The translations under genes and the position numbers were made by a program. A stretch of 64,000 bases of DNA, from positions 66,842-130,841 of the forward strand of contig JAFGSB010000158.1 of the NCBI GenBank assembly GCA_016934825.1, in the 5' to 3' direction. Source of the DNA: Candidatus Zhuqueibacterota bacterium. Its GTDB lineage: Bacteria; Zhuqueibacterota; Zhuqueibacteria; Residuimicrobiales; Krinioviventaceae. This document shows positions 35,028-56,761 of the stretch, in pieces; positions within the stretch are counted from its first letter, which is position 1, and every line of letters begins with the position of its first letter. Below the pieces are notes generated by a model, which saw nothing but the letters and a program-made list of their open reading frames with translations, made no database searches and was not told the DNA's origin.

Positions 35028-36419
35028 ATGGTAGTAATGAAATTTGGCGGTACTTCGGTAGCGGACGCCGCGGCCATGCGCAGAGTGGCGGAAATTGTGA
35101 AAACAAGAATAGATAAAAAACCCATAGTCGTTGTATCCGCGGTTGGCGGCCTGACTGATAATCTGGTTGCATTGAGCAAAGAAGCTAAAAACCGGAATAT
35201 GACAAAGGTTCAGGAAGTTGTAAATGTTGTTACGGAAAGGCATTTAAAAATAGTAAGGGACCTTGGTCTGGATAAAAATGGTTCACTGGTAAATGTTGTC
35301 ACCGAAACCGCCGAACAACTAAAAAAGGTATGTACAACAATCTCTGAGGCGGAGTCGATGCAAAAAGCCCTGGTGGATGAACTTTTAAGCACCGGGGAGT
35401 ATCTCTCTTCCCATATTATGGCTGCTTACCTTGATTCTGTCGGTATGAACGGTGTGTGGGCGGACGCGCGGGAGATACTGGTGACGGATTCCGTTTACGG
35501 CAGCGCCAAACCCAATATCGGAGAATCAACTGAAAAGGCAAAAGCGAAATTACTGCCGCTGGTTTCCGATAATAAAGTACCGGTTATTCAGGGATTTATC
35601 GGCCGGGACAAAAACGGGAAAATTACCACCCTCGGCCGGGGCGGTTCCGATTATACCGCTTCACTGATCGGCGCCATGCTTGATATGGAAGCGGTGGAAA
35701 TCTGGTCCGATGTCAGCGGGGTATTAACGGCCGATCCGTCTCTGGTGCCGGAAGCAAAGAGAATTCTGCTCATGAGTTTTCAGGAAGCGGCCGAACTGGC
35801 ATATTTTGGCGCCAAAGTTCTGCACCCGGCAACGATGCATCCGGCTGTTGACAAAGGTATTCCCATTTACGTATTAAATTCGATTTATCCGGAACAGGGG
35901 GGGACAAAGATCGCTCTGTCTTCCGATATTGCGGAAGACAAAATTTGCGTTGTGAAATCAATTGCCTATAAAGAAGGATTGACAGTTGTTACCGTTAACA
36001 GTACCAGAATGTTGATGGCGCATGGTTTTATGGCATCGATATTTCAGATTTTTGAAAAGTACAATACTTCCGTCGACCTTGTGGCCACATCGGAGGTGAG
36101 CGTATCGGTCACGATTGATAATACGGAACATCTTGAAGAGATCAAAAAGGAAATCAGCGCTTTTGCCACCGTAGGCGTTGTGAGTAACAAGGCGATTGTC
36201 TGTCTGGTCGGCCAGCACCTGAAACGCACCAGCGGTATGCCGGCAAGGATTTTTGGCCTGCTCGGCGATGTGCGCATCCATTTGATCTCACAGGGCGCTT
36301 CTGAAATTAATATCAGTTTTGTGATTGACGAAGTGGACTTGAAACGTGTCATTCAGCGGTTGCACGATCATTTTTTCGGCAACTCTTATGACGTGGAAAT
36401 TTTTGCTGAAAATAATTAA
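35028..36419 (+). CDS. lysC: Aspartate kinase
   Basis: VVMKFGGTSVADA N-terminal kinase motif; two C-terminal ACT domains. Confidence 0.9.
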   Translation: MVVMKFGGTSVADAAAMRRVAEIVKTRIDKKPIVVVSAVGGLTDNLVALSKEAKNRNMTKVQEVVNVVTERHLKIVRDLGLDKNGSLVNVVTETAEQLKKVCTTISEAESMQKALVDELLSTGEYLSSHIMAAYLDSVGMNGVWADAREILVTDSVYGSAKPNIGESTEKAKAKLLPLVSDNKVPVIQGFIGRDKNGKITTLGRGGSDYTASLIGAMLDMEAVEIWSDVSGVLTADPSLVPEAKRILLMSFQEAAELAYFGAKVLHPATMHPAVDKGIPIYVLNSIYPEQGGTKIALSSDIAEDKICVVKSIAYKEGLTVVTVNSTRMLMAHGFMASIFQIFEKYNTSVDLVATSEVSVSVTIDNTEHLEEIKKEISAFATVGVVSNKAIVCLVGQHLKRTSGMPARIFGLLGDVRIHLISQGASEINISFVIDEVDLKRVIQRLHDHFFGNSYDVEIFAENN

Positions 36420-36424
36420 TTTAT

Positions 36425-36608
36425 AACGCCAGTGTTCGGTTAAATCCGAACACGCCACTCTAAACATATTATATTATTAAAATTATCAGATATGAAATCA
36501 TTATTTGACTTTTATGTAAAATTTGAATTGTTTTAATTACATTAATTGATTTTATTAAACTAATAAACCGGATCAGGCAGCGGTGTCCGGTTAACGGACA
36601 CCGCTGAA
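36425..36608 (+). repeat. About 190-bp hairpin-terminated intergenic repeat, copy A
   Basis: 5' CGCCAGTGTTCGGTTAAATCCGAACACGCCACTCTAAACATATTA ... 3' CCGGATCAGGCAGCGGTGTCCGGTTAACGGACACCGCTG. Homologous along its length to copies at 41836 and 49876. Confidence 0.7.
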
Positions 36609-36625
36609 TTTATAAGGATATTTTT

Positions 36626-37357
36626 ATGAAAATTGGTATTTTAGGATATGGCAGGATGGGGCACGAAACTGAAAAAATCGCCGCATATTCCGGTCATTCT
36701 GTCGCGGCAATTTTTGATATCGATAAACCGTTTGAAAAAACTTCGGATATTAACGGTTCGGAAGTGATAATTGATTTTACCCTGGCGGGAGCGGTAATCG
36801 ATAATTTAGAAACGGCGGCGTTTTTGGGAGTGCCAATCGTCGAAGGGACTACCGGCTGGCTTGACGGTTTTGATAAAGTAAAACAAATAAAAAATCTGAC
36901 CATGATTTACAGTCCCAATTTTTCTATTGGGGTATACCAGTATACCAAAATAGTCGAATACGCGGCAAAAATAATGGGTACCCTGGATAGTTACGATTGT
37001 TATTTACACGAGTGGCATCATACCGGCAAAGCCGACAGCCCCAGTGGAACGGCAAAAAAATTGTCGGATATACTATTGAATAATTTACAACATAAAGATA
37101 AAGCCCTGTTCGATACAAGCCATGGAGTTATTGATAAAAAAGCGCTGCATGTAACATCCACAAGGGTTGGCAGGGTTCCCGGAACACATGAGATCGGTTT
37201 TGATTCCTTATATGATAGTATTCTGTTGAAACACCAGGCCCACGGCCGGGAAGGATTAGCTTCCGGCGCGGTAAAAGCCGCCGAATGGATTATTGGTAAA
37301 AAAGGAATATTTACAATGGACGATTTCATGAATGATTTAAACAGGCAAAGCAGTTAA
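36626..37357 (+). CDS. dapB: 4-hydroxy-tetrahydrodipicolinate reductase
   Basis: MKIGILGYGRMG Rossmann motif; DapB C-domain with EWHHTGKADSPSGTA. Confidence 0.9.
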   Translation: MKIGILGYGRMGHETEKIAAYSGHSVAAIFDIDKPFEKTSDINGSEVIIDFTLAGAVIDNLETAAFLGVPIVEGTTGWLDGFDKVKQIKNLTMIYSPNFSIGVYQYTKIVEYAAKIMGTLDSYDCYLHEWHHTGKADSPSGTAKKLSDILLNNLQHKDKALFDTSHGVIDKKALHVTSTRVGRVPGTHEIGFDSLYDSILLKHQAHGREGLASGAVKAAEWIIGKKGIFTMDDFMNDLNRQSS

Positions 37358-37385
37358 AATTTTCTCATAAAAGTGAAAGGACGCA

Positions 37386-38276
37386 ATGATGGATTCTTCC
37401 AGATTTCGCGGTACCACCGTGGCATTGATTACGCCGTTTTTAAGTAACGGAAACGTGGATGAAACGGCTTATAAAAATTTACTGGACTGGCAAATAGAAC
37501 AGGGAACAGACGTTATATTGACATGCGGTACAACGGGCGAAAGCGCCACTCTTTCTCATGAAGAACACGAAAAAGTGATCGAAATAACCATTCAACACGT
37601 TAACGGCCGGGTACCCGTATTGTGCGGAACCGGCAGCAATTCGACCAGTGAAGCGATATCGTTAACTCAATTCGCGGAAAAAGCCGGCGCCGACGGTATT
37701 CTTTCAGTCGGGCCCTATTATAATAAACCTCCCCAGGAGGGATTTTACCAGCATTTTAAAGCCATTGCCGAATCCGTCAGTCTGCCGGTTATTATTTATA
37801 ACGTGCCGGGCAGAACCGGCAGCAATATCGCCGCGCAAACCACACTCCGCCTTGCAGATATTCCGAATATTATCGGTATTAAAGAGGCCAGTGGAAACTT
37901 GTCACAGATCATGGCAATTATTAAAGACCGTCCGAAGGGTTTTCTTGTGCTGTCGGGAGACGATTCAATTACACTGCCTATTTTATCATTCGGCGGGGAC
38001 GGCGTCATATCCGTTGTTGCCAACGAAGTTCCCGCCATGCTGCACGAAATGGTTCACAGTACATTTGCCGGTAACTGGGACAGGGCGCGCGAATTACACA
38101 ATAAATTACTGCCGCTTATGGAATTTAATTTTGTCGAGAGTAATCCGATCCCCGTTAAAACGGCGGTCGCTTTAATGGGTAAAGTTGAAGATCATTTCAG
38201 GCTGCCGCTGGTTAATATGACGGAAGCGAACAAACAAAAAATGAAAGATATTTTAAAAGAATTGGGATTGATTTAA
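37386..38276 (+). CDS. dapA: 4-hydroxy-tetrahydrodipicolinate synthase
   Basis: GTTGES, Schiff-base lysine region and YNVPGRTG motif. Confidence 0.9.
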   Translation: MMDSSRFRGTTVALITPFLSNGNVDETAYKNLLDWQIEQGTDVILTCGTTGESATLSHEEHEKVIEITIQHVNGRVPVLCGTGSNSTSEAISLTQFAEKAGADGILSVGPYYNKPPQEGFYQHFKAIAESVSLPVIIYNVPGRTGSNIAAQTTLRLADIPNIIGIKEASGNLSQIMAIIKDRPKGFLVLSGDDSITLPILSFGGDGVISVVANEVPAMLHEMVHSTFAGNWDRARELHNKLLPLMEFNFVESNPIPVKTAVALMGKVEDHFRLPLVNMTEANKQKMKDILKELGLI

Positions 38277-38290
38277 TAATCGGATAGAAT

Positions 38291-39145
38291 ATGGACAATT
38301 TTAAATTTTATAAATACCACGCTTTGGGAAATGATTATATCGTCATAGACCCTAAGGATACAACCCTGGATATGACGGTGGAAAATATCAGGTTAATATG
38401 CCATAGAAATTTTGGCATCGGCTCGGACGGAATTTTATACGGTCCGCTTGAGACCGAAAAGGGCGATTTCGGCCTGCGGATTTTCAATCCCGACGGCAGC
38501 GAAGCCGAAAAGAGCGGAAACGGGCTGCGCATTTTTTCCAGGTATCTGTGGGACAAAAAGTTGGTGCGGGATGAACCCTTCACGGTCGATACTCCCGGCG
38601 GACTGGTTAACTCTGTTATATTGCGAAACGGTGAACTGGTCGATGTGGAAATGGGCCGCATCAGTTTTAACAGTACAAAAATACCTGTTACGGGCGGCGA
38701 GCGCGAGGTCATAAATGAAAAGATAACCGTAAATGAAAAGACTTTTCAATTTTGCGCAGCGTCCATCGGTAATCCGCATTGTATTATCCCGTGTGAAGAG
38801 ATATCCAGGGAACTGGCGACTTTATATGGTCCTCACATCGAGACACATTCCATATTCCCGAAAAGGATCAACGTCCAGTTTTTAAAAGTGCTTGACAGAA
38901 ATAATATAAAAATTGAAATATGGGAACGCGGCGCCGGGTACACGCTGGCATCCGGCAGCAGCAGCAGCGCAGCAGCCGCGGTCGCCCGTAAACTGGGTTT
39001 GTGTGATAATCATATTACGGTTCATATGCCCGGGGGCGAGTTGAAAATTTCAATTTCCGACAATTATGATATTACCATGACGGGACCCGTCACACGCATT
39101 GGCGATGGTGTTTTAGTAAAAGAAGCTTTTACGACCAAAGTATAA
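38291..39145 (+). CDS. dapF: Diaminopimelate epimerase
   Basis: YHALGNDYIV N-terminus; catalytic Cys pair (GNPHCI and ERGAGYTLASGS). Confidence 0.85.
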   Translation: MDNFKFYKYHALGNDYIVIDPKDTTLDMTVENIRLICHRNFGIGSDGILYGPLETEKGDFGLRIFNPDGSEAEKSGNGLRIFSRYLWDKKLVRDEPFTVDTPGGLVNSVILRNGELVDVEMGRISFNSTKIPVTGGEREVINEKITVNEKTFQFCAASIGNPHCIIPCEEISRELATLYGPHIETHSIFPKRINVQFLKVLDRNNIKIEIWERGAGYTLASGSSSSAAAAVARKLGLCDNHITVHMPGGELKISISDNYDITMTGPVTRIGDGVLVKEAFTTKV

Positions 39146-39174
39146 GGTCAACAATATAAACGGAAAGGTCACGA

Positions 39175-40404
39175 ATGGCAACGATTAATTCGAATTATAA
39201 TAAACTTGCGGCCGGGTATCTGTTTCCTGAAATTGCGAGAAGGACCCGGGCATTCCTGGAAAAGAATCCGGGGGTTAAAGTCATGCGCCTGGGTATCGGC
39301 AATACAACCGAACCCCTGACGCCCTCCGTCATTAAGGGATTGTTTTCGGGGGTCGAAAAATTAGCTTCCGTCGATACGTATACGGGATATGGGGACGAAC
39401 AGGGAGACGCCCGTTTAAGGGAGGCATTGAAGAAACAATACGCCGGACTGGGTGTAAACCTGGATATCGGCGAAATATTCGTCAGCGACGGCGCCAAGCC
39501 GGACTCCGGTAATATACAATCCATATTCGGGCAGGACAATATCATCGCGGTGCAGGATCCGGCCTACCCGGTTTACGTGGATACCAACGTTATCGCAGGC
39601 CGCACCGGTTTTTTTAATAAACAGAGAGGATTGTATGACGGAATCGTCTATATGCCCTGCACTGAAGCGAACGGATTTTTTTCGCCGGTTCCGGATCAAA
39701 AAGTGGACTTGATTTATATTTGCAGCCCCAACAACCCGACGGGTACCGTGGCAACAAAAGAGCAGTTAAAAACATTTGTCGATTACGCCCGGCGGAATAA
39801 AGCGGTCATTATTTTCGACGCGGCTTATTCCGCGTTTATCAAGGATGATTCTCTTCCCAAAAGTATATTTCAAATTGACGGGGCGGCGGAATGCGCCCTG
39901 GAGATAAACAGTTTTTCCAAAATTGCCGGTTTTACTGGCGTCCGGCTCGGCTGGGCCGTGGTGCCGAAAGCGCTGACGGTTGAAAACAGCGAACCGGGAA
40001 AAATAAATGCCCTGTGGAACAGAAGACAAAGCACTTTTTTTAACGGCGCTTCCAATATCGTGCAGGAGGGCGGTCTGGCCGCTCTTTCCGAACAGGGTGC
40101 AAAAGAGTGCCGTGGATTGATAGATTATTATATGGATAATGCCCTAATTATCAAAAACGGATTGACGGAAATCGGTATCAGGGTTTTCGGCGGAGATAAC
40201 GGCCCGTATATCTGGATGCAAACTCTTAACGGAATGAACTCGTGGGACTTTTTCGATAAATTAATAACCGAGACACATGTTGTCGGCACCCCCGGTTCCG
40301 GTTTCGGACCGAGCGGCGAGGGATATTTTCGTCTCAGTTCTTTTGGTCATAAACAGGATATTATCAACGCGGTTGACAGTATAAAACAGAATCTGGTGAT
40401 ATAA
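39175..40404 (+). CDS. dapL: LL-diaminopimelate aminotransferase (DapL type)
   Basis: N-terminal INSNYNKLAAGYLFPEIARR is characteristic of DapL; class I aminotransferase with the PLP-lysine SFSK motif. Confidence 0.85.
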   Translation: MATINSNYNKLAAGYLFPEIARRTRAFLEKNPGVKVMRLGIGNTTEPLTPSVIKGLFSGVEKLASVDTYTGYGDEQGDARLREALKKQYAGLGVNLDIGEIFVSDGAKPDSGNIQSIFGQDNIIAVQDPAYPVYVDTNVIAGRTGFFNKQRGLYDGIVYMPCTEANGFFSPVPDQKVDLIYICSPNNPTGTVATKEQLKTFVDYARRNKAVIIFDAAYSAFIKDDSLPKSIFQIDGAAECALEINSFSKIAGFTGVRLGWAVVPKALTVENSEPGKINALWNRRQSTFFNGASNIVQEGGLAALSEQGAKECRGLIDYYMDNALIIKNGLTEIGIRVFGGDNGPYIWMQTLNGMNSWDFFDKLITETHVVGTPGSGFGPSGEGYFRLSSFGHKQDIINAVDSIKQNLVI

Positions 40405-40422
40405 TCTATAAAGGAAATTTTT

Positions 40423-41739
40423 ATGTTATTGTCCGGCTACGGAAAGGTAACCGATATAATTATTATTGATGCGGCGAAACGGTACGGAACACCTTTTTAC
40501 TTATATGATGAGAGTTTGATCGTGGAAAAAGGCAATACGGTGCTATCCATGCCGAACGCTTATGGTTTAAATGTCAGCTATGCCATGAAGGCAAATTCCA
40601 ATAAAGCCATATTACAGCTTTTACATAAACTGGGCTTCAGGATTGACGCGAGCTCTTTGAATGAAGCGCGGCGCGCCCACTTTGCCGGCTTTCCATTGAA
40701 CAGGATCATGCTAACGACCCAGGAAATTCCATTAAATAAAGACCGCCGGGATCTTGAACAGATGATGCTGCAGGGACTGAAATATAATGTTTGTTCCCTG
40801 CGGCAGCTGCATCTGATCGCAGAGTTTGCCTCGAAACATCATATCAATCTGGCCATGCGCGTGCACCCGGGTGTAGGGACCGGGGAATCCGTCACAAGAA
40901 ACACCGGCGATAAATATTCCTGTTTTGGCGTGCATCTGACGGATATCGAAAAAGCCCTGCAATATGCTTCAACTATGGGTTTGAAATTTGATCTTGTACA
41001 TACACATATCGGGTCCGGTGGCAGTCCGGTTGAATGGCGTAATAATATTGAAAGGGAATTGAGTTTTGTGGAAAAATATTTCCCCGACGCGACAACCGTC
41101 AATTTCGGCGGCGGCTTTAAAGAAGCCCGTATGCCGGATGAAACGGCGTCGGATATTCATGATCTGGGTTTATACGCCAAACAACGGTTTGAGGATTTTT
41201 ATAAAAGGACCGGGCGCAAACTGACAATGGAAGTGGAACCCGGTACATTTATCGTCGCCAATGCGGGCTATATTGTATCGACGGTGCTTGACATCAAACA
41301 AACCGGTCCGGACGGGTTTGAATTTTTAATTCTCGATGGCGGGATGGAAGCCAACGTCAGGCCCCTGTTGTACGGGTCCAGGCATCCGTTTTATATCGTA
41401 TCCAAACAGGGGCAATTGCTGTCATCCGAATTTGATTTGAACGGCTTTGATTCGGAAAAAGATTTGCGCGTTATTGTGGGGCGCTGCTGTGAAAGCGGGG
41501 ACTCGCAGTGTCTCGACGCAAATGGTAACATTGTACCACGTGTGATGGCCAAACCGGAAACCGGTGATTATGTTGTAATTGGCGGGACCGGCGCCTACTG
41601 TTCATCCATGTCGCCATATAATTATAATTCCTATATTCAGGCCCCGGAAATATTATTGCGGACAAACGGGGAGTTGCAGATCATCAGGAAACCGCAGACC
41701 CTGGAACAAATGATCAAAAATGAAATGTCCCTGGATTAA
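40423..41739 (+). CDS. lysA: Diaminopimelate decarboxylase
   Basis: Fold-III PLP decarboxylase with YAMKAN PLP-lysine motif, GGG and CESGD motifs. Confidence 0.85.
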   Translation: MLLSGYGKVTDIIIIDAAKRYGTPFYLYDESLIVEKGNTVLSMPNAYGLNVSYAMKANSNKAILQLLHKLGFRIDASSLNEARRAHFAGFPLNRIMLTTQEIPLNKDRRDLEQMMLQGLKYNVCSLRQLHLIAEFASKHHINLAMRVHPGVGTGESVTRNTGDKYSCFGVHLTDIEKALQYASTMGLKFDLVHTHIGSGGSPVEWRNNIERELSFVEKYFPDATTVNFGGGFKEARMPDETASDIHDLGLYAKQRFEDFYKRTGRKLTMEVEPGTFIVANAGYIVSTVLDIKQTGPDGFEFLILDGGMEANVRPLLYGSRHPFYIVSKQGQLLSSEFDLNGFDSEKDLRVIVGRCCESGDSQCLDANGNIVPRVMAKPETGDYVVIGGTGAYCSSMSPYNYNSYIQAPEILLRTNGELQIIRKPQTLEQMIKNEMSLD

Positions 41740-41754
41740 TATTGAACTGATCTT

Positions 41755-41783
41755 GGAAAAGCCCTTTTAAAGGGCTTTTTTAC
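41755..41783 (+). terminator. Rho-independent terminator of the lysine operon
   Basis: GAAAAGCCCTTTTAAAGGGCTTTTTTAC: perfect 7-bp GC-containing stem, 5-nt loop, then a U-run. Confidence 0.8.
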
Positions 41784-41835
41784 TTTATGATCCTTTATAA
41801 AAGGTTTGACATGAGAGTTTGAATTAATTATATTT

Positions 41836-42033
41836 AGCCTGACACCAGTGTCCGGTAAACCCCGGACGCGACACTCTTAACATATTTATATATTAACGTA
41901 TTCTGATATAATATCATTTATTGATTTGTTTGAGAAAAATAAATTTTTATAATTATTTAACCTGATTTTATTTAAATTGTAAGCCGTATCAGGGAGCAGT
42001 GTCCGTGAACCGGACACCAGTGTTAGCCTGAGT
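41836..42033 (+). repeat. About 190-bp hairpin-terminated intergenic repeat, copy B
   Basis: 5' AGCCTGACACCAGTGTCCGGTAAACCCCGGACGCGACACTCTTAACATATT ... 3' CCGTATCAGGGAGCAGTGTCCGTGAACCGGACACCAGTGTTAGCCTGA. Confidence 0.7.
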
Positions 42034-42053
42034 AAAATAAAAAAAAGAGAATT

Positions 42054-43112
42054 ATGAAAGTTAAAGATTATCAACGCGCCCCGCTCTTCAATGATATACG
42101 GCTTGGAATAGTATTGATTATTATTCTTGTCTTTAGTTTTACTTTTTATCTTATCCGTGTTCCTTCCGGTATCGGATTTGCCATATCGGCTTTTTTGGCC
42201 CTCATTTTATTTATTTCCCCGTTTATTTTATTGGCCAATCCAACCCTAATTAAAATTCTGCGTAAAGATATTGAAACCCATCCGATACATGTATGGATTC
42301 TGCCGTCATTTTTGTTCGTTGTTTTATTAATCTACGCATTCATAACAGGACATGCTGACGGTCCGGGTATTTTAAAAGGTTTCCTTTATTGTTTCGTTCC
42401 TTTTTTACTGTTTATGCTTTTGAAAAACAGTTCGCCGGTATTGACAATTCCTGATGTTATCCTTGTCCTGGTTTTGTGGCTTCCGGTTGAATTCGGATTC
42501 GTACCCGACCTTGGTATCCCGCACGTGCAATCCGTTATCAACGTGTATTTATTGATCGGTTTGAATATTATATTATATGTTTACCTGGTTATGCGTCAAT
42601 TACCCGATATGGGTTATACTTTCAGATTAAAGGATCATGAATGGCGGACCGCTGTCATGAATTTTTTAATCCTATTGGTGATAGCAATACCGGTCGGGCT
42701 GCTCACTCATTTTATCGTTTTTTCCCGGACTATGCCCTCTTTTGGGGAAATGATACAAAAATTACTGTTTATTTGTTTTTTTGTCGCCCTGCCGGAGGAA
42801 ATATTGTTCCGCGGGGTCATCCTCAATTTAATTGAAAAACAATTGGGCGGGGTAAAAAAAGCGGGTACGATCGCCATGTTGATATCATCCGTTTTATACG
42901 GACTGGCGCACGGTAACAATTCAAGTCCTCCTTTTATCGATTTATCGCCTGGATCGTTGGGAACCTGGCATGTACCATGGGCTTTTATGCTGCTGGCAAC
43001 GATAGCCGGTGTCTTTTACGGTTTGACCTATATAAAGACCCGTAAGATTTTTGCCGCTGTAATAGTCCATTTGTTCATTAACTGGAGCTGGTTTGTTTTT
43101 TTCAGCGGTTAA
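42054..43112 (+). CDS. CPBP-family (CAAX/Abi) intramembrane metalloprotease
   Basis: EEILFRG motif 1, LYGLAH motif 2 and a C-terminal His motif; 8 to 9 TM helices. Confidence 0.7.
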   Translation: MKVKDYQRAPLFNDIRLGIVLIIILVFSFTFYLIRVPSGIGFAISAFLALILFISPFILLANPTLIKILRKDIETHPIHVWILPSFLFVVLLIYAFITGHADGPGILKGFLYCFVPFLLFMLLKNSSPVLTIPDVILVLVLWLPVEFGFVPDLGIPHVQSVINVYLLIGLNIILYVYLVMRQLPDMGYTFRLKDHEWRTAVMNFLILLVIAIPVGLLTHFIVFSRTMPSFGEMIQKLLFICFFVALPEEILFRGVILNLIEKQLGGVKKAGTIAMLISSVLYGLAHGNNSSPPFIDLSPGSLGTWHVPWAFMLLATIAGVFYGLTYIKTRKIFAAVIVHLFINWSWFVFFSG

Positions 43113-43270
43113 AACCGGTTCAACTCATAATTACAAACTAAATTGATCCATTTTATCTTTCAGCACAAAAGCAAAGTGGATGATACGACTGTTGATATGA
43201 AAATAAAATTGTTACAGGTATAATAAACGATATAAAATATTACATACAGGAAAAAGTTCGGGACAGCAAT

Positions 43271-44533
43271 ATGAAAAAAGATAAACCCAGGATCATGGTA
43301 TTCGGAATCGGCTCGTTTGCCGCTTCCGCCATGCGGGTGTTCGCGGAAGACGGCGCCGAGGTTTTTTGTTATTTGACCCGCGAATACGGCCATTATGGTC
43401 CATCACAGGAAGGTAAGACCTTTTATTATAAAGACATACCCAATCCCTGTGACATATTAAAAAAATTAAAAATCGATATGGTGTTTCCGATGTCCATCAA
43501 CTGGCACCAGGAAGAATGGACGGAGGAATTTTTACAAACGGGTATCCCGGTGTTTTCCCCGGTTCATGACGCCATGCTGTTGGAACGGGACAGGGATTTT
43601 GCCAGAAAACTATGTAAAAAGTACGGTATACCGTTTCCCCAGTCCCACGTCGCCAAAAATCGGCTTGAAGCGCTGGCTTATGTGAACGCGCATCCCAAAC
43701 CCTATGTCATTAAAAATCCGTTGTGTCGGCCCGGCAGTCCCGTGCATACAATCGTTACGGAAACCGTTCAGGACACAAAAAGCTGGCTGGAAAATGTGAA
43801 TTACGCCGAAGGTGTTTTTTTACAGGAATATATGGGCCGCAGGGAAGCGGGCCATATTGCTTTCATCAGCAACGGTGAAATATATTCGGTGGTGACCAAC
43901 CAGGAATATAAATGGTCCTTTGACGGCAACATGGGCCCGGTTGCCGGAGCGCCTTTGGGCGGACTGGTGGAAGTAGATCCCGGAGATAAATACGGGCTTG
44001 CCAGGGAACTCATTCACCCATTGCTGCCCTGGTTCAGGGAAACGAATTTTAACGGCCCTGTACAGGTTACCGCGGCCAAACGTGACAGCAAATGGTATGT
44101 GCTGGAATACAATGTGCGCACCGGTGTTACGGCCGGTCTGCCGTTGTTACGTATGCTGAAAAATCCGGTCAAAACGATTATGGATACGGCTGTGAACAAA
44201 AAAATCAATATAGATTATGTAAAAAGGAATGAATATGCCTGCGTGTTGACATTGGCTGGCTGGGGGTACCCCTATACCAAAATCACAGGTCCGTATTTGA
44301 CGGTACAGGTAAACGGTAAAACGGATTGTGATATCTGGTGGAATGAAGTGGAAGGCGGAGGGGGCGGACAAATGTTCATGTCCGGACACCGGATAGCGGA
44401 CGTTGCCGCCGTTTCGGATTCAATGGAAAAAGCCGTTCAGATCGCTTACAAAAATATAAAAAAGATATACTGCCTGAGCAGTTATTTTCGTCTTGATGTC
44501 GGTAAAAGTTTGTGGCCGCCCGGAAGTGATTAA
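43271..44533 (+). CDS. PurD-like ATP-grasp ligase (phosphoribosylamine-glycine-ligase homolog lacking the N-domain GGREHA motif)
   Basis: Collinear similarity to PurD N, ATP-grasp and C domains (e.g. VLEYNVRTG vs PurD VIEFNCRFGDPE). The invariant PurD GxGGREHA is replaced by GIGSFAASAM. Confidence 0.65.
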   Translation: MKKDKPRIMVFGIGSFAASAMRVFAEDGAEVFCYLTREYGHYGPSQEGKTFYYKDIPNPCDILKKLKIDMVFPMSINWHQEEWTEEFLQTGIPVFSPVHDAMLLERDRDFARKLCKKYGIPFPQSHVAKNRLEALAYVNAHPKPYVIKNPLCRPGSPVHTIVTETVQDTKSWLENVNYAEGVFLQEYMGRREAGHIAFISNGEIYSVVTNQEYKWSFDGNMGPVAGAPLGGLVEVDPGDKYGLARELIHPLLPWFRETNFNGPVQVTAAKRDSKWYVLEYNVRTGVTAGLPLLRMLKNPVKTIMDTAVNKKINIDYVKRNEYACVLTLAGWGYPYTKITGPYLTVQVNGKTDCDIWWNEVEGGGGGQMFMSGHRIADVAAVSDSMEKAVQIAYKNIKKIYCLSSYFRLDVGKSLWPPGSD

Positions 44534-44559
44534 ATAGAGAAAGAATTTAAACATACACA

Positions 44560-45351
44560 ATGAAAATCGTATTTTCGGAATATAAATCGGATTACGCAAA
44601 TTATATCTTCCCATATTCCATCTGGGCTTACCCGGAGGAGCATGAGACGCCTGCGGATTTATTTGACCGGGGCTTTTTACCCAATTCGCCCAACCTGGAC
44701 CGTTTTTACCTGTGCAGAAATGTTCGTGTTGATTTGGATCGATATGAACCTTCATCAGAGAACCGAAGGATTTTACGGAAAGGGGAGGGCATAGAACCGG
44801 GACTGGTGGAACGGCAGAATTTTGACTTTTCTCCGTCGTGGCGCGAGTTTTGTAAAAAGTACGCCGATGAAAAATTCGGCAAGGACGTGATGAGTTATGA
44901 CAGGCTCGACCGTATCATGAGCGCCCCAATCATTTCGCATGTGATGATATTTAAAGACCTAAAATCTCAAAAGGATATCGGTCTGGTGTTTTTATATATT
45001 GAAAAACCCCATGTTGCTTTTTATTATTATTCGTTCTATGATCTCAACTTTTTTCGGAACAGTCTTGGAATGTTTATGATGACGTCGGCAGTTGGAGAAA
45101 TGAAGAATAATGGTGTTCGGCATATTTATCTCGGATCGTGTTACAGCCGGAATGCCCTTTACAAAACCCAGTTCGAAGGCGTGGAATTTTTTAACGGGTT
45201 CAGATGGTCCGATAATATCAATGAATTAAAATACCTGATCGCCAGGGACTCCGATAAGGTGGACCATCATTTGCTTGAGTCCGACGATTTTACAAGCCGG
45301 TTTTATCCTGATGGAATTAATCCCGGAATACAGACCCGGCAAAACGATTAA
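44560..45351 (+). CDS. ATE/Bpt-family aminoacyl-tRNA-protein transferase-like protein
   Basis: VRVDLDRYEPSSENRRILRK matches the Bpt IRISVPDIELSRSQKRLLAK region; FYYYSFYD and HIYLGSCYSRNALYKTQF match the Bpt/ATE_C core. Confidence 0.6.
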   Translation: MKIVFSEYKSDYANYIFPYSIWAYPEEHETPADLFDRGFLPNSPNLDRFYLCRNVRVDLDRYEPSSENRRILRKGEGIEPGLVERQNFDFSPSWREFCKKYADEKFGKDVMSYDRLDRIMSAPIISHVMIFKDLKSQKDIGLVFLYIEKPHVAFYYYSFYDLNFFRNSLGMFMMTSAVGEMKNNGVRHIYLGSCYSRNALYKTQFEGVEFFNGFRWSDNINELKYLIARDSDKVDHHLLESDDFTSRFYPDGINPGIQTRQND

Positions 45352-45743
45352 ATTACCGGCAGGACAGGAAAACTGTTTTTTATATTACTCCTTCCACGGG
45401 TAAGAATATTAGTTAATTATTCACCATTCTCGTGAAGATATTTTATTTTATGTATTAGATTAAATTTTTATAAAATATATAGTATTTTTTTATACTTGAT
45501 TTTTTAATAAATCAGGATTATTTTATAAAGATTTATTATATATTATACAAATTTGATAAATTATATAAGTAAGGTTTTAACCGGCAATATCGTTAAAATT
45601 TTATTATAAAAGAAGCTGCTTAGGAACACACGAACCTCCCGCACAGGATTTTTATTCATCGACTTTAGGAACTCTGGAAAAAGACAGCTCACTCATTCAG
45701 GCTTTAAGTTCTTATTTGTTCATAAACAAATGGAATAAAAAAA

Positions 45744-47786
45744 TTGTTACCCGTAGTAACAACAATTGAAACAAAGTGTAAACGCTGTTATTCCTGTATA
45801 CGGAATTGTCCGGCAAAGGCGATAAAAGTCGAAAAAGGCCAGGCAATGGTCATAACCGAACGATGTATTGCCTGCGGTTATTGCGTCAAAGTGTGCCCGC
45901 AGAACGCCAAAAAAATACGTGATGATATTTTTCCCACCCTGAATTTATTATCTTCTAAAAGTCGAACAGTCGCCGTATTGGCGCCGTCTTTCCCGGCAGC
46001 TTTCCCGGATCTGGAACCCGGGAAAATTTTAACCGCGATACGGAAACTTGGATTCAGCCGCGTATATGACGTGGCGTATGGCGCTGATTTGATCAGTAAA
46101 GAATACAGGGAGTTATTGGACTCCAATATTATGCCGTTTATTATTTCCTCCCCCTGTCCCGCAGTTGTTAATTATATTGAAAAATACTATCCCATTTTGA
46201 CAATGTGTCTGGCCCCGATTGTATCTCCCATGATCGCTATCGGCAGGTACATCAGCAAATATATTAATCCTGATGCGTTTATTGTTTTTATCGGTCCCTG
46301 CATTGCAAAAAAGAAAGAAATGGGCGACCCGAAAGTCACAGATGTAATAAATCAGGTTTTGACTTTTGATGAATTGAAAGAGCTGTTTACGAAAAAAAAT
46401 ATACAACCCGGCAACGAATTACCGGGTGAATTTGACGGTCCGAATGCCCACCGCGGAAAACTGTTCCCGGTTTCCGGGGGATTGTTAAAAAGCGCCGAAT
46501 TAAATTATGATATTACGGATAATGATATCATTGTCACCGAGGGTAGGGATCGCGTTCTGGAGATTTTACAGAAAGCTTCCGAAGGTCAAATTGAGGCTAA
46601 GTTTTTGGACCTGCTTTTTTGTGAAGGATGTATCAACGGCCCGAAAATTGACAATAACCTTTCGGTGTTTGTAAAAAAAGACAAGGTGATTAATTATATT
46701 AACAGCCGGGTTGAAGAGGAAAAAGAATTTACCCTGGAAAATTTCGATTTAAGCGGGCTGGATCTTGGACGTAAATTTACCAATGAATATAAGGACGAGA
46801 AAATTCCGGATGAAAACGAAATAAAAGCAATACTGCAACTTACCGGAAAAAGTAATCCTGAAGATGAACTGAATTGCGGGGCCTGTGGTTATATATCCTG
46901 CCGTGAGAAAGCGATTGCCGTTTACCAGGGACTGGCCGAGGCTGAAATGTGCCTGCCCTATATGCTGGACAGACTGGAAAAAGTCCAAAATGAGCTGCAA
47001 AAGTCCAATATAGAACTAAAAGAATCCCTGGATACCCTGAAAAAGACCCAACAACAGCTTATTCAATCGGAAAGGCTGGCTTCAATTGGAGAATTGGCCG
47101 CGGGAGTGGCTCATGAATTGAACAATCCGTTAGGGGGAGTGCTAATTTTCAGCAGTCTGTTACTAGAACGAAAAAACATCAGCGATCCGGAATACAGGGA
47201 TTTGAAAAAAATTATTGAAGAGACCGAGCGCTGCAGGAAAATTGTGCACGGATTGTTGGACTTTTCCCGACAGTCCCGTTTGCAGGCCGCTATCGCCGAT
47301 CTAAACAAGATATTAATCAGCACCCTGACCCTGATTGAAAATCAGGTCCTGTTCCAAAATATAAAAATTGTCAGGGAACTGAATCCGGATATCCACAAAG
47401 TATTTGTTGATGTCGGCCAGATTCAGCAGATAGTATTAAATATTATTTTCAACGCGGCTGAAGCGATGGACGGAAAAGGTACGCTAATTGTAAAAACCGG
47501 TTTTTCCCCGGACAAAAAATTTGTACTTGCCAGCTTTAAAGATACCGGAACCGGAATATCGGCGGAACTGCTAAATAAAATTTTTGATCCTTTTTTTACG
47601 ACCAAACCCCCCGGCAAAGGTACAGGATTGGGCCTGTCAATATCTTACGGTATCATAAAAAAACACAAAGGCGATATTATTGTTGACAGCAAGCCGGGGA
47701 AAGGGACCACATTCACAATCAAATTGCCTTCCGCCCTGGTCATGCAGGATACATACCAATTGAATAATAAAATTGTACAAAAATAA
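45744..47786 (+). CDS. Sensory [FeFe]-hydrogenase-like (HydS-type H-cluster domain with two N-terminal 4Fe-4S clusters) fused to a histidine kinase
   Basis: 2x CxxCxxCxxxCP ferredoxin motifs; H-cluster motifs SSPCPAV (L1 variant), [10 protein letters not shown] (L2) and FCEGCINGP (L3). A coiled-coil is followed by the HisKA H-box [12 protein letters not shown] and HATPase_c N/G boxes (GTGLGLSI). TTG start. Confidence 0.8.
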
Positions 47787-48245: not shown

Positions 48246-48832
48246 AAAAAAATGAAAAAAATTTCACTTTTTTGAAAAAAAGACTTGCACATTTTATTTC
48301 GTTTGTTTATAATTAAATAAAGTTGTGAAAAAAAGTACAGCTTTTGTTTATTATCATACGGAACCGATTTTCTATACATCTACAGTGAGGGTCCTGACCT
48401 GCCTCCCCGATATTACGGCCCACTACTCTTGAGACGATACCAGGATATTGAATTAAACAATACCTTTGAGTTGTCTTTATTATGCTACGAGGATTGGGAC
48501 GGTGTTTACGTATATGAGTACGATCCGGAAAATGGTAAAGGAATGTTTTTCTATTTATTGTGATATTATAGCCGCTAATCACCGACTTTTTTTGAATAGG
48601 GATTACAAGTTATAACTTCAACAAGCAGAATAAAACCGGATTGATCGATTTCATTGTAAAATCCACAAGATTGCCCAATCAAATTTACTAAAATTTTTTT
48701 CAATCAGAAAATTTTTTGACATTGTTTTTGTTGATTTTGAAAATTTTAATGATGCATTAATTCATCATGTGTCCATGTTGAAGCGATTGTCATATTTAAG
48801 ATTTTGTATTGAAATTCGATGGAGGTGAAGTA

Positions 48833-49861
48833 ATGATTATCAAAGTGGACGAATTTATTGCGTTTTTATATAAATGTCAGGATAAGGGATTTTCCGGTTT
48901 TGATCAAATTATTTTACCCGTCAGGTCCGGGAATAAAGATTCGGATTCGTTTTATTTTGCGCAATTATCAAAATCAAAAGAATTTGATATAGACTCCTAC
49001 CGGACCGTCGATCCATTAAAAATGTTTTTCTTTCTTCCCCGTGAAAAAATTCTGCCGCAAACATTTGATAATACAAAACGCTTGATCGTCGGCGCAAAAG
49101 GTTGTGATATCAGGGCGCTGAAAGTGCTTGACAAGGCCATGATTAATGAAGATTTTGTCGATCCCGCTTATTTTTATTGGCGGCAAAATACCACAATCAT
49201 TAGCGCGGATTGTACCGACATTGCCCCGACCTGTCATTGTAATCTGGTAGACGGACATCCTTATGCCGAAGCTAATTTTGATCTGAATCTTTCCCGCTAT
49301 AAAGATGTTTATGTCGTCACATCGGGAAGTGAAAAGGGCGAGGAATTGCTGGAATTATTAAAAAAGGAATGTAAAGTTGAACCCGGGTCCCCAGAAATTT
49401 CTGCCAATATTCAGGAGCAAAGAAATAAAATAATCCGGTTATTGGAAAAACAAAATGAACAATACGAGAGAAATAATGAATTTGAAAAATTAAAACAAAA
49501 CCCGATGGATAATTGGTCAGATGAATCCAAAACATGTATCGGGTGCGGCGCCTGTACGAATATCTGCCCGACCTGTTATTGTCTTATTTTAAATGATGAA
49601 ACAAAAGCGGAAGAATTTGTCAAGGTCAGGAGCATGGATTCCTGCCAGTTAAACGGATATGCCCGCGTTGCCGGCGGAAGCACGCCCCGGCCTAAAATGT
49701 TCCAGAGATTTCGTAATCGTTATTTATGTAAATTTCTATTTATGAAAAGTAATTTTGATATGTTGGGCTGCACGGGGTGCGGAAGGTGTACGGAAGCATG
49801 CGCGGCCCAAATTGATTTTCGTCAGGTAGTCAATTCTGTTTTGAACGCGGTTGTCGATTGA
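48833..49861 (+). CDS. AsrA/HydB-like iron-sulfur subunit (anaerobic sulfite reductase A / sulfhydrogenase beta family)
   Basis: C-terminal CIGCGACTNICPTCYC and CTGCGRCTEAC clusters; typical length. Confidence 0.65.
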   Translation: MIIKVDEFIAFLYKCQDKGFSGFDQIILPVRSGNKDSDSFYFAQLSKSKEFDIDSYRTVDPLKMFFFLPREKILPQTFDNTKRLIVGAKGCDIRALKVLDKAMINEDFVDPAYFYWRQNTTIISADCTDIAPTCHCNLVDGHPYAEANFDLNLSRYKDVYVVTSGSEKGEELLELLKKECKVEPGSPEISANIQEQRNKIIRLLEKQNEQYERNNEFEKLKQNPMDNWSDESKTCIGCGACTNICPTCYCLILNDETKAEEFVKVRSMDSCQLNGYARVAGGSTPRPKMFQRFRNRYLCKFLFMKSNFDMLGCTGCGRCTEACAAQIDFRQVVNSVLNAVVD

Positions 49862-49875
49862 AAATAGATATGTAT

Positions 49876-50062
49876 AGCACTAGTGTCCGGTTAAACCCGG
49901 ACACGACATTCGTAACATATTATTTTATTAACGTTTTTGGATATGATTTCATTAATTGATATGGTTGAATAAAATTAAATTTTTCCAATTTTTAGCTTGA
50001 TTTTATTGAACTTGTAAACCGGATCAGGCAGCGGTGTCCGTTAACCGGACATCAGTGATGTT
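49876..50062 (+). repeat. About 190-bp hairpin-terminated intergenic repeat, copy C (inside the hydrogenase operon)
   Basis: 5' GCACTAGTGTCCGGTTAAACCCGGACACGACATTCGTAACATATTA ... 3' CCGGATCAGGCAGCGGTGTCCGTTAACCGGACATCAGTGATGTT. Confidence 0.7.
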
Positions 50063-50095
50063 ATAGTAGAATTTTTGAGGTAACAGGAGAAGATT

Positions 50096-50917
50096 ATGAA
50101 TAACCCGTATGAGGTCGTACCTGCCACGATATATGAAATTATTCAGGAATCTCCGTTAATTCGCACGTTACGTGTTCAACCGGAGAAACCCATACCGTTT
50201 AAAACCGGACAATTTATTGAACTGACCATACCCGGCATTGGCGAGGGTCCGTTTACTCCTTCATCATCACATTTCATCAGCGAAAATATGGATATTACCA
50301 TCATGAAAACCGGTTTTGTGACGGAATATGTTCACAGAGCTAAAGTCGGCGACAAAGTGGGTTTGAGGGGACCCTACGGTTCGCATTATCCGCTCGAAAA
50401 ATTCAAGGGTAAGGACCTTTTGATACTTGGCGGCGGCTGCGGACTCGCGCCGTTACGATCACTTTTTACGACCCTGCTGCATGAAGTGGAAGATTATAAC
50501 AGCATTACATTTTTCGCGGGAGCTAAAACGCCAAAGGATTGTATCTACAAGGATTCGGTGACGGATTGGAGAAAATATGACAATGTCACGTTTATGCGCA
50601 GTGTCGATGTTGTTCCCGATGGCGAAGAGTGGGACGAGGAAGTTGGGCTGGTTACTTCGCTGTTATCCAAACTGGATATTGATACGGCTGTAAATCCGGC
50701 GGTGGTTTGCGGACCGCCTGTTATGATGAAGTTTGGTACAATGGATTTGATCAAATGCGGTTTCCGGGAAGAAAATATATATCTGTCGATGGAAAAGAAA
50801 ATGTACTGCGGTTTCGGCCAATGCCGGCATTGCGTGATGGGCGAGTTTTATGCCTGCAAAGACGGCCCCGTGTTTACTTATGCCCGGATAAAGAATGAGG
50901 AGGATATTTGGGAATGA
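50096..50917 (+). CDS. AsrB/HydG-like FAD/NAD(P)-binding oxidoreductase subunit with C-terminal [2Fe-2S]
   Basis: FNR-like fold (GQFIEL, LILGGGCGLAPLRS) and CGFGQCRHCVMGEFYAC cluster as in PyrK/AsrB/sulfhydrogenase gamma. Confidence 0.8.
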   Translation: MNNPYEVVPATIYEIIQESPLIRTLRVQPEKPIPFKTGQFIELTIPGIGEGPFTPSSSHFISENMDITIMKTGFVTEYVHRAKVGDKVGLRGPYGSHYPLEKFKGKDLLILGGGCGLAPLRSLFTTLLHEVEDYNSITFFAGAKTPKDCIYKDSVTDWRKYDNVTFMRSVDVVPDGEEWDEEVGLVTSLLSKLDIDTAVNPAVVCGPPVMMKFGTMDLIKCGFREENIYLSMEKKMYCGFGQCRHCVMGEFYACKDGPVFTYARIKNEEDIWE

Positions 50918-51417
50918 AAAAACTTTTTATTGATGTTCCGGCCCTGATCAATTCCGGCGCAGCAGTCGATCAAATTAAATGCGAATATCTTTTTCACAGA
51001 AAAAATAACGGCGCTTTTTCCCTGCTGGAGGTGGCGCAATTTGCTTCATATTGCCGGCAGTGTACGGAATCGTTCTGCGTCTCGGCATGCCCGGTGGAAG
51101 CCCTGGAACGGCAGGAAACCGGAACCATCAAACGGCATAATATGCGATGTGTGGGGTGCAAAAGTTGTGTACTGGCCTGCCCGTTCGGAACGATTTTCCC
51201 CGAGGTCATTAATTATGTGACCTGTCAGTGCGATTTGTGTTTGAATCAGTTGGAGCAGGATCCTGACTATGTTCCGCTGTGTGTGAAAACCGCACCCGCT
51301 CAAACCTTTGCGATGAAAGAGTTAACGGAAGAAGACCCGCAGCAGCATATCTATTTTTCGGGTAAGCATCTGGCAATTAAAAGTCCGAACTGGCGGCACA
51401 AGGAGGGCAAGTCATGA
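50908..51417 (+). CDS. 4Fe-4S dicluster electron-transfer subunit (HycB/HyfA-like)
   Basis: CRQCTESFCVSACP and CVGCKSCVLACP plus a CDLC motif. Confidence 0.7.
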   Translation: MGMKKLFIDVPALINSGAAVDQIKCEYLFHRKNNGAFSLLEVAQFASYCRQCTESFCVSACPVEALERQETGTIKRHNMRCVGCKSCVLACPFGTIFPEVINYVTCQCDLCLNQLEQDPDYVPLCVKTAPAQTFAMKELTEEDPQQHIYFSGKHLAIKSPNWRHKEGKS

Positions 51418-52343: not shown

Positions 52344-52344
52344 T

Positions 52345-52764
52345 ATGGGATGGTATAATAAAAGACTGGCAAAATCAATATGGGTGTTTCATCTAAGTGC
52401 GTCCCCGTGTAATAATTGTGATATCGAAATACTGGACCTGCTCACACCAAAATATGATCTGGAACGGTTCGGGATCAAGCTCGTGGGTTCTGTCAGGCAC
52501 GCGGATGTGATCCTGTTGAGCGGTATCATCAATCAAAAAGTCGCCCCCAAAGTTACACATTTATATTCGCAGGCGCCGAAACCTGTTTTTGTCGTCGGCG
52601 TGGGAACATGTCCTGCCGGCGGCTGTTGCTTTAACGACAGCTACAATAAAGTGCCCTGCCGAGAGGACGTCATTCCCATTGATATGTATATACCCGGTTG
52701 TCCGCCCAAACCGGAAGCCATGATCGAGGGCGTTGTAAAACTTGTGGAGGTTCTGAATGGATAA
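52345..52764 (+). CDS. [NiFe] hydrogenase small subunit (NuoB/HycG/EchC family)
   Basis: Cys ligands for the proximal cluster: CNNCD, GTCPAGGCCF and GCPPKPEA. Confidence 0.85.
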   Translation: MGWYNKRLAKSIWVFHLSASPCNNCDIEILDLLTPKYDLERFGIKLVGSVRHADVILLSGIINQKVAPKVTHLYSQAPKPVFVVGVGTCPAGGCCFNDSYNKVPCREDVIPIDMYIPGCPPKPEAMIEGVVKLVEVLNG

Positions 52765-56759: not shown

Positions 56760-56761
56760 AA

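Follow-up and report, generated by a model that had tools for sequence, protein, structure and literature searches.

The subject of this analysis is a 64,000-nucleotide stretch of DNA from a Candidatus Zhuqueibacterota bacterium (GenBank assembly GCA_016934825.1, contig JAFGSB010000158.1, positions 66,842 to 130,841), referred to below as the window, and three adjacent genes in it. Two of them encode a PurD-fold ATP-grasp ligase (LIG) and an Ate1/Bpt-fold protein (BPT), which on balance seem to constitute a two-enzyme module of peptidoglycan-precursor peptide synthesis that would combine ATP-grasp and aminoacyl-tRNA chemistry. The peptidoglycan assignment is favored because the family is recurrently linked to alr, murE, murC/mpl-like, mraY, murA/B, and MurL-like genes and because an ATP-grasp partner recurs. 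The third gene encodes a CPBP protease. The three open reading frames (ORFs) lie on one strand, with 158 bp between CPBP and LIG and 26 bp between LIG and BPT, exactly where an earlier sequence-only reading had placed them:

42054..43112, plus strand: CPBP (Rce1-like) intramembrane glutamic protease, 352 aa (Pfam PF02517)
43271..44533, plus strand: LIG, PurD-fold ATP-grasp amide ligase, 420 aa (Pfam, AlphaFold model, family alignment)
44560..45351, plus strand: BPT, Ate1/Bpt-fold (GNAT-type) aminoacyl-tRNA-transferase-like protein, 263 aa (Pfam, AlphaFold model, Foldseek)

The domain assignments of that reading (CPBP, PurD-like, and Bpt/ATE-like) turned out to be correct by Pfam and fold matches, and so did its remark that LIG is collinear with PurD and devoid of the GxGGREHA motif. 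The AlphaFold model of LIG (predicted local distance difference test score, pLDDT, 87.3) superposes over the full length on Aquifex PurD (2yw2) with a template modeling (TM) score of 0.83, and the motif is replaced. The N-A-B-C four-domain ATP-grasp architecture is present in the model; the best 15 PDB fold matches are all PurD, followed by biotin carboxylases, and LIG has no membrane segment. Pfam detects GARS_A (E 4e-9) and GARS_C (E 3e-8) and finds no match to GARS_N. Against the NCBIfam purD equivalog TIGR00877 the protein scores 120 bits, which is under half of the cut-off of 288, and no Ddl model is found among its Pfam and NCBIfam matches.

The residues of LIG were mapped by aligning the family profile to solved PurD sequences, the roles being taken from work on human GARS (PMC2978367) and from a quantum mechanics/molecular mechanics study of PurD (PMC8880213). 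The core that handles ATP, Mg, and acyl-phosphate is retained (K148, E186, E192, K214, E279, N281, R283, and R374), R283 being the acyl-phosphate arginine. In human GARS, R13 and E14 of the GxGGREHA loop contact the acyl-phosphate and the ribose of phosphoribosylamine (PRA), while the acids D295 and E297 of the RFGDPE motif hold the ammonium of glycine and act on the PRA amine (PMC2978367). These and further PurD elements are replaced in LIG as follows:

GGREHA pair R13/E14 of PurD: F/A in LIG
GPE helix of PurD: PMSI(D/N)W in LIG
B-loop GLAAGK of PurD: PLC(S/R)P(T/G)SP(I/V)HT in LIG
D217 of PurD: E212 in LIG
RFGDPE acids D295/E297 of PurD: V286 and S/T/A288 in LIG, where the motif reads R-x-G(V/I)T(S/T/A)
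FHAGT of PurD: WWNE in LIG

The whole GxGGREHA motif corresponds to G(I/V)G(S/A)F(A/T) in the LIG of the window and in about 98 of its 120 best relatives, the other 22 not being matched by the pattern search. Near-invariant motifs of the family are PMSI(D/N)W, NPLCxPxSPxHT, NQEYK, GxVAGAPLGG, R-x-GVT, WWNE, and SLWPPG. Judged by this alignment, LIG is without every known PRA- and glycine-binding residue of PurD, and it is therefore unlikely to be the only purD of the genome. The active-site comparison thus agrees with the earlier proposal that LIG is an ATP-grasp ligase of a different substrate: by its residues it is a PurD-fold ligase acting on something other than the substrates of PurD. Since the ammonium-binding acids are lost, LIG may activate a carboxylate other than that of a free alpha-amino acid.

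BPT is recognized mainly by its fold. Its AlphaFold model (pLDDT 86.2) finds human and yeast ATE1 as the best Foldseek matches (8tzv, E 7e-9, TM 0.60), with A-PGS, FemX, and MprF next in rank; all of them belong to the aminoacyl-tRNA transferases of the GNAT superfamily, and no other kind of protein occurs among the leading matches. Searches of PDB sequences with BPT, as a single sequence or as a profile, gave nothing, so that fold comparison alone produced matches. At the level of profiles, Pfam ATE_C is matched with E 2.5e-4 and 22.1 bits, under the cut-off of 25. The C4 metal-binding cysteines of ATE_N are not kept: C52 alone can be aligned to one of the four positions, and the second invariant cysteine, C194, lies in the GNAT core. 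The NCBIfam arginyltransferase models reach at most 47 bits, with cut-offs of at least 170 and of 267 for the best-scoring model. BPT has no match to the FemAB family PF02388, shows a weak match to Acetyltransf_6 only (E 0.04), and contains no membrane segment.

Among the invariant elements of BPT are the basic helix SSENRRILRK (residues 65-74, S65-S-E-N-R-R-x-x-R-K74) and the motif L191-G-x-C-Y...Y201-K202. Both persist in relatives of only 30-40% identity, and the Y-K pair is invariant in distant members. Ate1 binds tRNA through a basic helix, and Y303 and K304 of klAte1 are located at the active site, K304 corresponding to K305 of FemX (PMC9351520). A ScAte1 sequence identical to that of PDB 8e3s/7tif was used for alignment. 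By hhalign, residues 153-193 of BPT align with 254-293 of ScAte1 at low probability, and Y201-K202 may fall on Y303-K304 if this alignment is extended manually across a two-residue gap. Tentatively, the same alignment places F154, M173, A177, and I189 of BPT at the positions of the arginine pocket of Ate1 (S255, S273, E277, and Y289), for which Bpt has A, A, Q, and L. The donor pocket of BPT would then be fully apolar and crowded, as might suit a donor that is small or apolar. The acceptor side differs as well. R80 in the GFRRSG motif of Ate1 is essential for acidic N-termini (PMC9351520), and in a manual alignment this position of BPT reads G38-F39-L40-P41, without arginines. By these residues BPT would not be an N-degron transferase.

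The distribution of the two proteins was followed in a BPT scan of one genome per GTDB species, which found at least 398 genomes with a BPT relative, and in a tblastn census of the best 80 loci, which come from Verrucomicrobiota, Calditrichota, and KSB1. Homologues of LIG and BPT share 51-91% identity across phyla. LIG has more than 2000 database relatives, canonical PurDs included, and its best 120 are 57-90% identical and have Calditrichota, KSB1, and Verrucomicrobiota among them; BPT relatives show the same phyletic pattern, the closest one (91% identity) being found in a metagenome-assembled genome of candidate division KSB1. Many loci contain in addition an alanine racemase gene (ALR), and the 80 loci are composed as follows:

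LIG, ALR, and BPT: 41 of 80 loci
ALR and BPT: 14 of 80 loci
CPBP, LIG, and BPT: 13 of 80 loci
BPT alone: 11 of 80 loci
LIG and BPT: 1 of 80 loci

By its TIGR00492 score (368 bits, cut-off 168), ALR is a true alr. It stands directly 5' of BPT in 50 of the 72 loci that have enough upstream sequence; the gap has a median of 104 bp, and in some cases stop and start codons overlap. The order LIG, ALR, BPT is found in Pedosphaera-type Verrucomicrobiota and on a 1.27-Mb metagenome contig. What has been conserved is the combination of LIG and BPT, usually joined by ALR, rather than the trio. The sequence-only reading had treated the trio as a unit, and this did not hold, CPBP accompanying the pair in only 13 of the 80 loci, all of one clade. 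Its suggestion that ATP-grasp and tRNA-dependent amide formation are combined fared better, as LIG and BPT do form a conserved pair for which this is plausible, and the doubt it had raised, that BPT might lack any conserved linkage, is answered by the ALR adjacency. That BPT lies outside the clpS/aat context was also right: neither ClpS nor Aat families are found among the approximately 40 window ORFs scanned, and pur, clpS, and aat genes never adjoin the LIG/BPT pair in related loci. The dominance of ALR and, in distant relatives, of peptidoglycan genes among the partners points to cell-wall precursor synthesis rather than to a bacteriocin or protein-degradation system.

Two further observations were made in these loci. 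A DusB-like tRNA dihydrouridine synthase gene lies convergently 3' of BPT in about 19 of the 80 loci, in Verrucomicrobiota (for example, L029 10811-11899 and L064 13073-14122); it was judged to reflect lineage synteny and not partnership, though it is a tRNA-related neighbor. In one protein of 373 aa (P0283), the N-terminal 243 residues stem from a LIG homologue and run directly into the C-terminal 130 of a BPT homologue; it is probably a deletion or an assembly chimera spanning a LIG-alr-BPT operon.

The CPBP protease of the window matches PF02517 with E 2.4e-20 and 73 bits (cut-off 22). It is predicted to be a polytopic membrane protein with about 10 hydrophobic segments, and by its motifs, all three of which are intact (EEILFR 248, YGLAH 282, and HLFIN 339), it would be a catalytically competent enzyme. 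Its gene is located 5' of LIG in the 13 loci of the window's own clade, where it is less conserved (32-47% identity) than LIG (64-82%) or BPT (59-68%), and in five of the 13 a SpeG/PseH-like GNAT acetyltransferase gene is inserted between CPBP and LIG. CPBP would thus be an accessory of this clade. Staphylococcal SpdC/LyrA is tied to cell-wall control, and CPBP might have a similar link.

Distant relatives of BPT bring the link to peptidoglycan genes into sharper focus. A profile search of 1.84 billion cluster representatives returned 703 BPT-like clusters (50% identity) at E <= 1e-3, 142 of them at E <= 1e-30. Their genes were found in the following settings:

L096: MurE, BPT-like, and MurC/Mpl-like, all overlapping
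L089: MurA, BPT-like, and Mpl/MurC-like
L092: ATP-grasp, NlpC/P60-like, MraY, BPT-like, and MurC/Mpl-like, with MurB adjacent and divergent
L088 2076-3320 and L087 3672-4019: MurL-like epimerase (E 3e-72 in L088) overlapping the BPT-like gene
L098: M23 peptidase 3 bp 5' of BPT-like
L097: GT2 glycosyltransferase and RimK-like ATP-grasp 5' of BPT-like
L086 8001-10430: protein P0339, 809 aa, joining BPT-like, PPDK_N (an ATP-grasp domain), and a phosphoenolpyruvate (PEP)-utilizer phosphohistidine swivel domain, with MurE 4.4 kb away

The fusion in P0339 suggests that some BPT-like domains work in cis with a phosphotransfer or kinase module. The contigs L087 and L088 lie outside the taxa with reported MurL.

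A metagenome scan seeded with the L096-type subfamily yielded 80 further loci. Half of these (40 of 80) belong to a subfamily of the candidate phyla radiation (CPR), with the source names Microgenomates and Shapirobacteria, in which every product is labeled "hypothetical protein". Here, MurE is directly 5' of the BPT-like gene in 29 of 40 loci, and a MurC/Mpl-like ligase is directly 3' in 28 of the 31 that have a downstream gene. The setting is a division and cell wall (dcw) cluster of the form mraZ-mraW-ftsL-ftsI-murE-BPT-murC-murB-murA, continued either by ddl or by murF-mraY-(P60-like)-(ThrC-like pyridoxal phosphate enzyme)-(biotin-carboxylase-like ATP-grasp)-ftsW. In a second subfamily of 21 loci, MraY stands directly 5' in 13 and a MurC-like ligase directly 3' in 13. 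The L096-seeded loci contain 66 Mur-ligase ORFs (NCBIfam, E <= 1e-45), of which 32 are MurC/Mpl, 25 are MurE, 9 are MurF, and none is MurD. In dcw clusters, the slot between mraY and ftsW is normally occupied by murD. In the CPR clusters (L128 12814-16772, L123 13657-16576, and L168 9431-13871), it holds genes for an NlpC/P60-like protein, a threonine-synthase-like pyridoxal phosphate enzyme, and a biotin-carboxylase-like ATP-grasp protein. One Microgenomates genome study describes the peptidoglycan pathway, without detail, as "essentially complete" (PMC7143001).

The ATP-grasp partners of BPT-like proteins come from at least four unrelated families, namely PurD-like, biotin-carboxylase-like, RimK-like, and fused PPDK_N. 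The possibility that the CPR ATP-grasp protein belongs to the LIG family was rejected: the hhalign probability is 1.2%, and the two are unrelated beyond the core. Several CPR dcw clusters with BPT-like genes encode a canonical Ddl, as seen with an E. coli DdlB probe, which was validated by a match of 354 bits in L101. In these organisms, therefore, the module would not simply be a replacement of Ddl.

What the sequences show is the folds, the kept catalytic motifs, the missing specificity residues of PurD and of N-degron enzymes, the operon structure, and the conserved linkage to alr and to mur/dcw genes. From these features we infer that tRNA is used, which donor and acceptor take part, in what order the steps run, and what the product is. 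BPT would transfer the aminoacyl group of an aminoacyl-tRNA to the free amine of a stem-peptide building block or of a UDP-MurNAc-peptide, a chemistry that is shared by Fem transferases and Ate1/Bpt, and, to judge by the hydrophobic pocket, the donor might be a residue that is small or apolar, L-Ala for example. LIG would use ATP to turn a carboxylate into an acyl-phosphate, which would then be joined to an amine; the most plausible carboxylate is that of D-Ala from the co-operonic ALR, present as the free amino acid or as the C-terminal residue of a short peptide. The product of the two enzymes might be a non-canonical element of the stem peptide, namely a branch or a pre-assembled piece.

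Two models can be formulated, between which the present data cannot decide. In the first, the module makes a Fem-like branch on the diamino acid in position 3, with a D-residue added by LIG. In the second, it has a core role, BPT extending a free amino acid or peptide that a divergent MurC/Mpl-type ligase then loads onto UDP-MurNAc. The persistent coupling of BPT with MurC, the MurL neighbor, and the absence of murD from near-complete mur clusters favor the second model, although the murD of CPR carriers may simply lie elsewhere, which weakens it. In its full form, the second model makes BPT a core stem-peptide enzyme that performs N-terminal extension from an aminoacyl-tRNA, the product being loaded by the MurC/Mpl-type ligase so that MurD or another Mur ligase is bypassed; we assume this to be unlikely, yet not negligibly so. 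An example would be the formation of L-Ala-Glu from L-Ala-tRNA and Glu, and in the window's family BPT could attach an amino acid to the D-Ala or D-Ala-D-Ala that Alr and LIG supply. If true, this would mean a tRNA-dependent, partly reverse-direction precursor route across CPR, Verrucomicrobiota, Calditrichota, and KSB1.

Several points weigh against the assignment of LIG and BPT to peptidoglycan precursor synthesis. In the window's own family, the link consists of alr adjacency and of extrapolation from relatives of 29-42% identity, and alr could share the operon for unrelated reasons. No mur ligase is adjacent in this family, and MurA is found within a few kb in only two loci. In five loci whose upstream sequence extends over 8 kb or more, BPT stands alone, and five others have ALR-BPT with no LIG nearby. 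The assignment gives CPBP no defined role. The mapping of the Y-K pair and the pocket onto Ate1 is tentative because of the low hhalign probability. The window LIG reads W215-S216 (TGG TCC, 43913-43918) where 105 of 120 relatives have R-A, and W215 occupies the position of R220 of human GARS, an ATP-phosphate contact; among the 120 relatives this position is R in 108, Y in seven, and W in one, so it appears to tolerate aromatic residues. Finally, the proposed substrates of both enzymes are candidates.

Other explanations of the same genes have to be weighed against this one. It is quite unlikely that LIG and BPT modify another envelope component or a protein, for instance by aminoacylating or D-alanylating a lipid, a polysaccharide, a teichoic-like polymer, or a terminus that CPBP cleavage exposes on a protein. 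The fold neighbors of BPT do include the lipid aminoacyl transferases A-PGS, L-PGS, and MprF, the window's clade has CPBP and SpeG/PseH-like GNAT partners, a glycosyltransferase or Wzi-like capsule gene is near BPT-like genes in some loci, and one member is fused to the PPDK_N/PEP-utilizer kinase module. However, BPT and LIG are soluble proteins by the lack of a membrane segment, the strongest and commonest neighbors are murE, murC/mpl-like, mraY, murA/B, and alr, and no lipid-synthesis or polymer-export gene is consistently linked. Maturation of a ribosomal peptide, a bacteriocin, or a small metabolite, with CPBP cleaving or protecting, LIG adding an amino acid via ATP, and BPT via tRNA, has very little probability. 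This view can point to the single unit formed by CPBP, LIG, and BPT in the window and 13 related loci (five with GNAT) and to the frequent association of CPBP proteins with bacteriocin immunity. It is opposed by the spacers, which hold no plausible precursor ORF on the plus strand and none conserved in related loci: there is no small plus-strand ORF in 41740-42053, 43113-43270 between CPBP and LIG contains only a 26-codon TTG ORF, and 45352-45743 contains only a 42-codon TTG ORF overlapping the 3' end of BPT. The link to bacteriocins and precursor peptides that the sequence-only reading had suspected therefore found no credible ORF in flanks or spacers. Moreover, no transporter, leader-peptidase, or other gene typical of peptides made by the ribosome and modified after translation (RiPPs) is present, CPBP is not found in 67 of the 80 loci, distant BPT relatives are located in dcw clusters, and LIG and BPT are shared across phyla, with 51-60% identity, as single-copy genes in syntenic housekeeping contexts, which is untypical of specialized metabolism.

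An explanation by ordinary housekeeping genes, in which LIG is a divergent glycinamide ribonucleotide (GAR) synthetase, BPT is a divergent N-degron leucyl/arginyl transferase, and their adjacency is meaningless, seems hardly credible. It would agree with the public annotations as phosphoribosylamine--glycine ligase and arginyltransferase and with the full PurD fold of LIG, and tblastn found no canonical purD or ddl in the window and 86 loci, though this sample is far too small to be informative. On the other side, GGREHA (R13/E14), the GLAAGK B-loop, and D295/E297 are all replaced in LIG, its purD score is 120 against the required 288, BPT has neither the C4 cysteines nor the arginine of GFRRSG that acidic N-termini require and scores below the cut-offs of the hidden Markov models, and the pair is linked in most loci.

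The proposed peptidoglycan module can be compared with several known systems. The Fem transferases (FemX, FemA/B, and MurM/N) share with BPT the GNAT-type fold (Foldseek E about 2e-6 for FemX), the transfer from aminoacyl-tRNA to an amine of a peptidoglycan precursor that is proposed for BPT, and the genomic association, BPT genes being among or near peptidoglycan genes (alr in the window's family; murE, murC-like, and mraY in distant subfamilies). The synthesis of side chains from L- and D-residues (PMC2922099) would be mirrored by a tRNA-dependent step together with an ATP-grasp enzyme and a racemase. By contrast, BPT is a single unit of about 260 aa from the Ate/Bpt lineage, with TM 0.60 to ATE1 and about 0.42 to FemX and no FemAB match, LIG has the PurD fold and is not of the D-Asp-ligase or Ddl type, and LIG-BPT occur in diderm phyla and BPT-like proteins in CPR. 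The D-aspartate ligase of Enterococcus, an ATP-grasp side-chain ligase, is encoded next to its racemase.

Bpt and Ate1 provide the best structural match to BPT, which matches ATE_C and the arginyltransferase models weakly and may have the equivalents of their basic helix and Y-K pair. BPT differs from them in lacking the C4 zinc/Fe-S cysteines and the R80-type pocket, in scoring below every curated cut-off, and in its context of alr or mur genes instead of clpS/aat; a protein substrate is not indicated. PurD and LIG have in common the four-domain fold, the ATP-grasp core, and the C-domain motifs GYP, GxR, and YRxDxG, whereas the PRA and glycine residues and the B-loop are replaced in LIG, and its operon partners are alr and BPT rather than pur genes. 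Ddl resembles the role proposed for LIG as an ATP-grasp ligase that works with alanine racemase in peptidoglycan precursor synthesis, and its alanine site overlaps the glycine site of GARS (PMC2978367), although LIG has no Ddl family match. The MurL system is a precedent for a lineage-restricted, non-canonical early step of peptidoglycan synthesis (PMC8788868). It resembles the contexts in which a MurL-like gene overlaps a BPT-like gene, but the MurD2/MurL system uses other enzymes and another chemistry, no MurD2 is found beside BPT, and the window's family has no MurL neighbor.

The NCBI labels are "hypothetical protein", "phosphoribosylamine--glycine ligase", and "GARS C domain-containing protein", and the JGI label for BPT is "arginyltransferase". 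NCBIfam (June 2026) has no model naming LIG or BPT, and full-text searches of the literature brought up no description of LIG and BPT as a pair and none of an Ate/Bpt-like protein encoded in dcw clusters. The formation of cell-wall peptides by tRNA-dependent and ATP-grasp enzymes is already known; the enzyme lineages, the hosts, and possibly the position in the pathway are new. Peptidoglycan precursor synthesis is considered one of the bacterial pathways that are best understood and most conserved, and it is a leading target of antibiotics. The data tie an unnamed Ate1/Bpt-fold family to this pathway, through apparent translational coupling to murE and murC in CPR and to ALR in three other phyla. 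If the proposal is true, the stem peptides of these lineages are built or tailored by a tRNA-dependent chemistry that has gone unrecognized outside the cross-bridges of Gram-positive bacteria. The analysis also corrects the misannotations as "phosphoribosylamine--glycine ligase" and "arginyltransferase", which distort reconstructions of purine synthesis and the N-degron pathway in metagenome-assembled genomes.

The DNA upstream of the three genes contains the following features:

33760-33941: lysine riboswitch RF00168 (Rfam, 114 bits), heading the upstream lysine operon
34023-41739: seven-gene lysine operon (M20 peptidase, lysC, dapB, dapA, dapF, DapL-type aminotransferase, and lysA-like decarboxylase)
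41754..41782, plus strand: intrinsic-terminator-like hairpin with a 13-bp stem and a T run, directly 3' of lysA (inverted repeat in sequence)
41806..41834, plus strand: sigma-70-like promoter candidate 5' of CPBP, TTGACA-17-TATATT, 11/12 positions (consensus match only)
41838..41855, strand not assigned: palindromic motif CCGGACACYRGTGT, copy 1 (motif/inverted-repeat search)
42010..42023, strand not assigned: palindromic motif CCGGACACYRGTGT, copy 2, 172 bp 3' of copy 1 and 31 bp before the CPBP start codon

The hairpin probably marks the end of the lysine operon. Because of this terminator after lysA and the promoter candidate 5' of CPBP, the CPBP, LIG, and BPT genes are predicted to form their own transcription unit. 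At the three genes, Rfam detects no riboswitch or other RNA element; its matches are the lysine riboswitch, which lies 8 kb upstream, and a chance match below the threshold. The motif CCGGACACYRGTGT has four matches in the window, with 0.02 expected by chance, a further copy being located at 49877-49890 after an ORF that ends at 49861; it is possibly an operator or a repetitive extragenic palindromic (REP)-like element. The lysine operon was considered as a functional partner and rejected, as a strong terminator intervenes and the arrangement is kept only in the closest relatives (five loci); it was treated as synteny. The lysA-like decarboxylase of the window scores 240 bits, under the lysA cut-off of 298, and in the closest relatives (L001 and L006) a second lysA-like decarboxylase gene lies just after BPT.

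Downstream, 45744-47786 encodes a sensor histidine kinase that carries at its N-terminus an H-cluster domain similar to that of [FeFe]-hydrogenases, along with ferredoxin domains, and 48809-59524 contains genes for Fe-S proteins and a membrane-bound hydrogenase/complex-I-like cluster (NuoH, NuoB, NuoD/NiFe-like, and antiporter-like subunits). Upstream of the lysine operon, an ORF of 1566 aa (27934-32634) appears to be an unusual fusion in which a complete RND transporter (ACR_tran) is followed by an ABC ATPase domain at the C-terminus, and it adjoins genes for a second RND pump, a membrane-fusion protein, and an outer-membrane factor.

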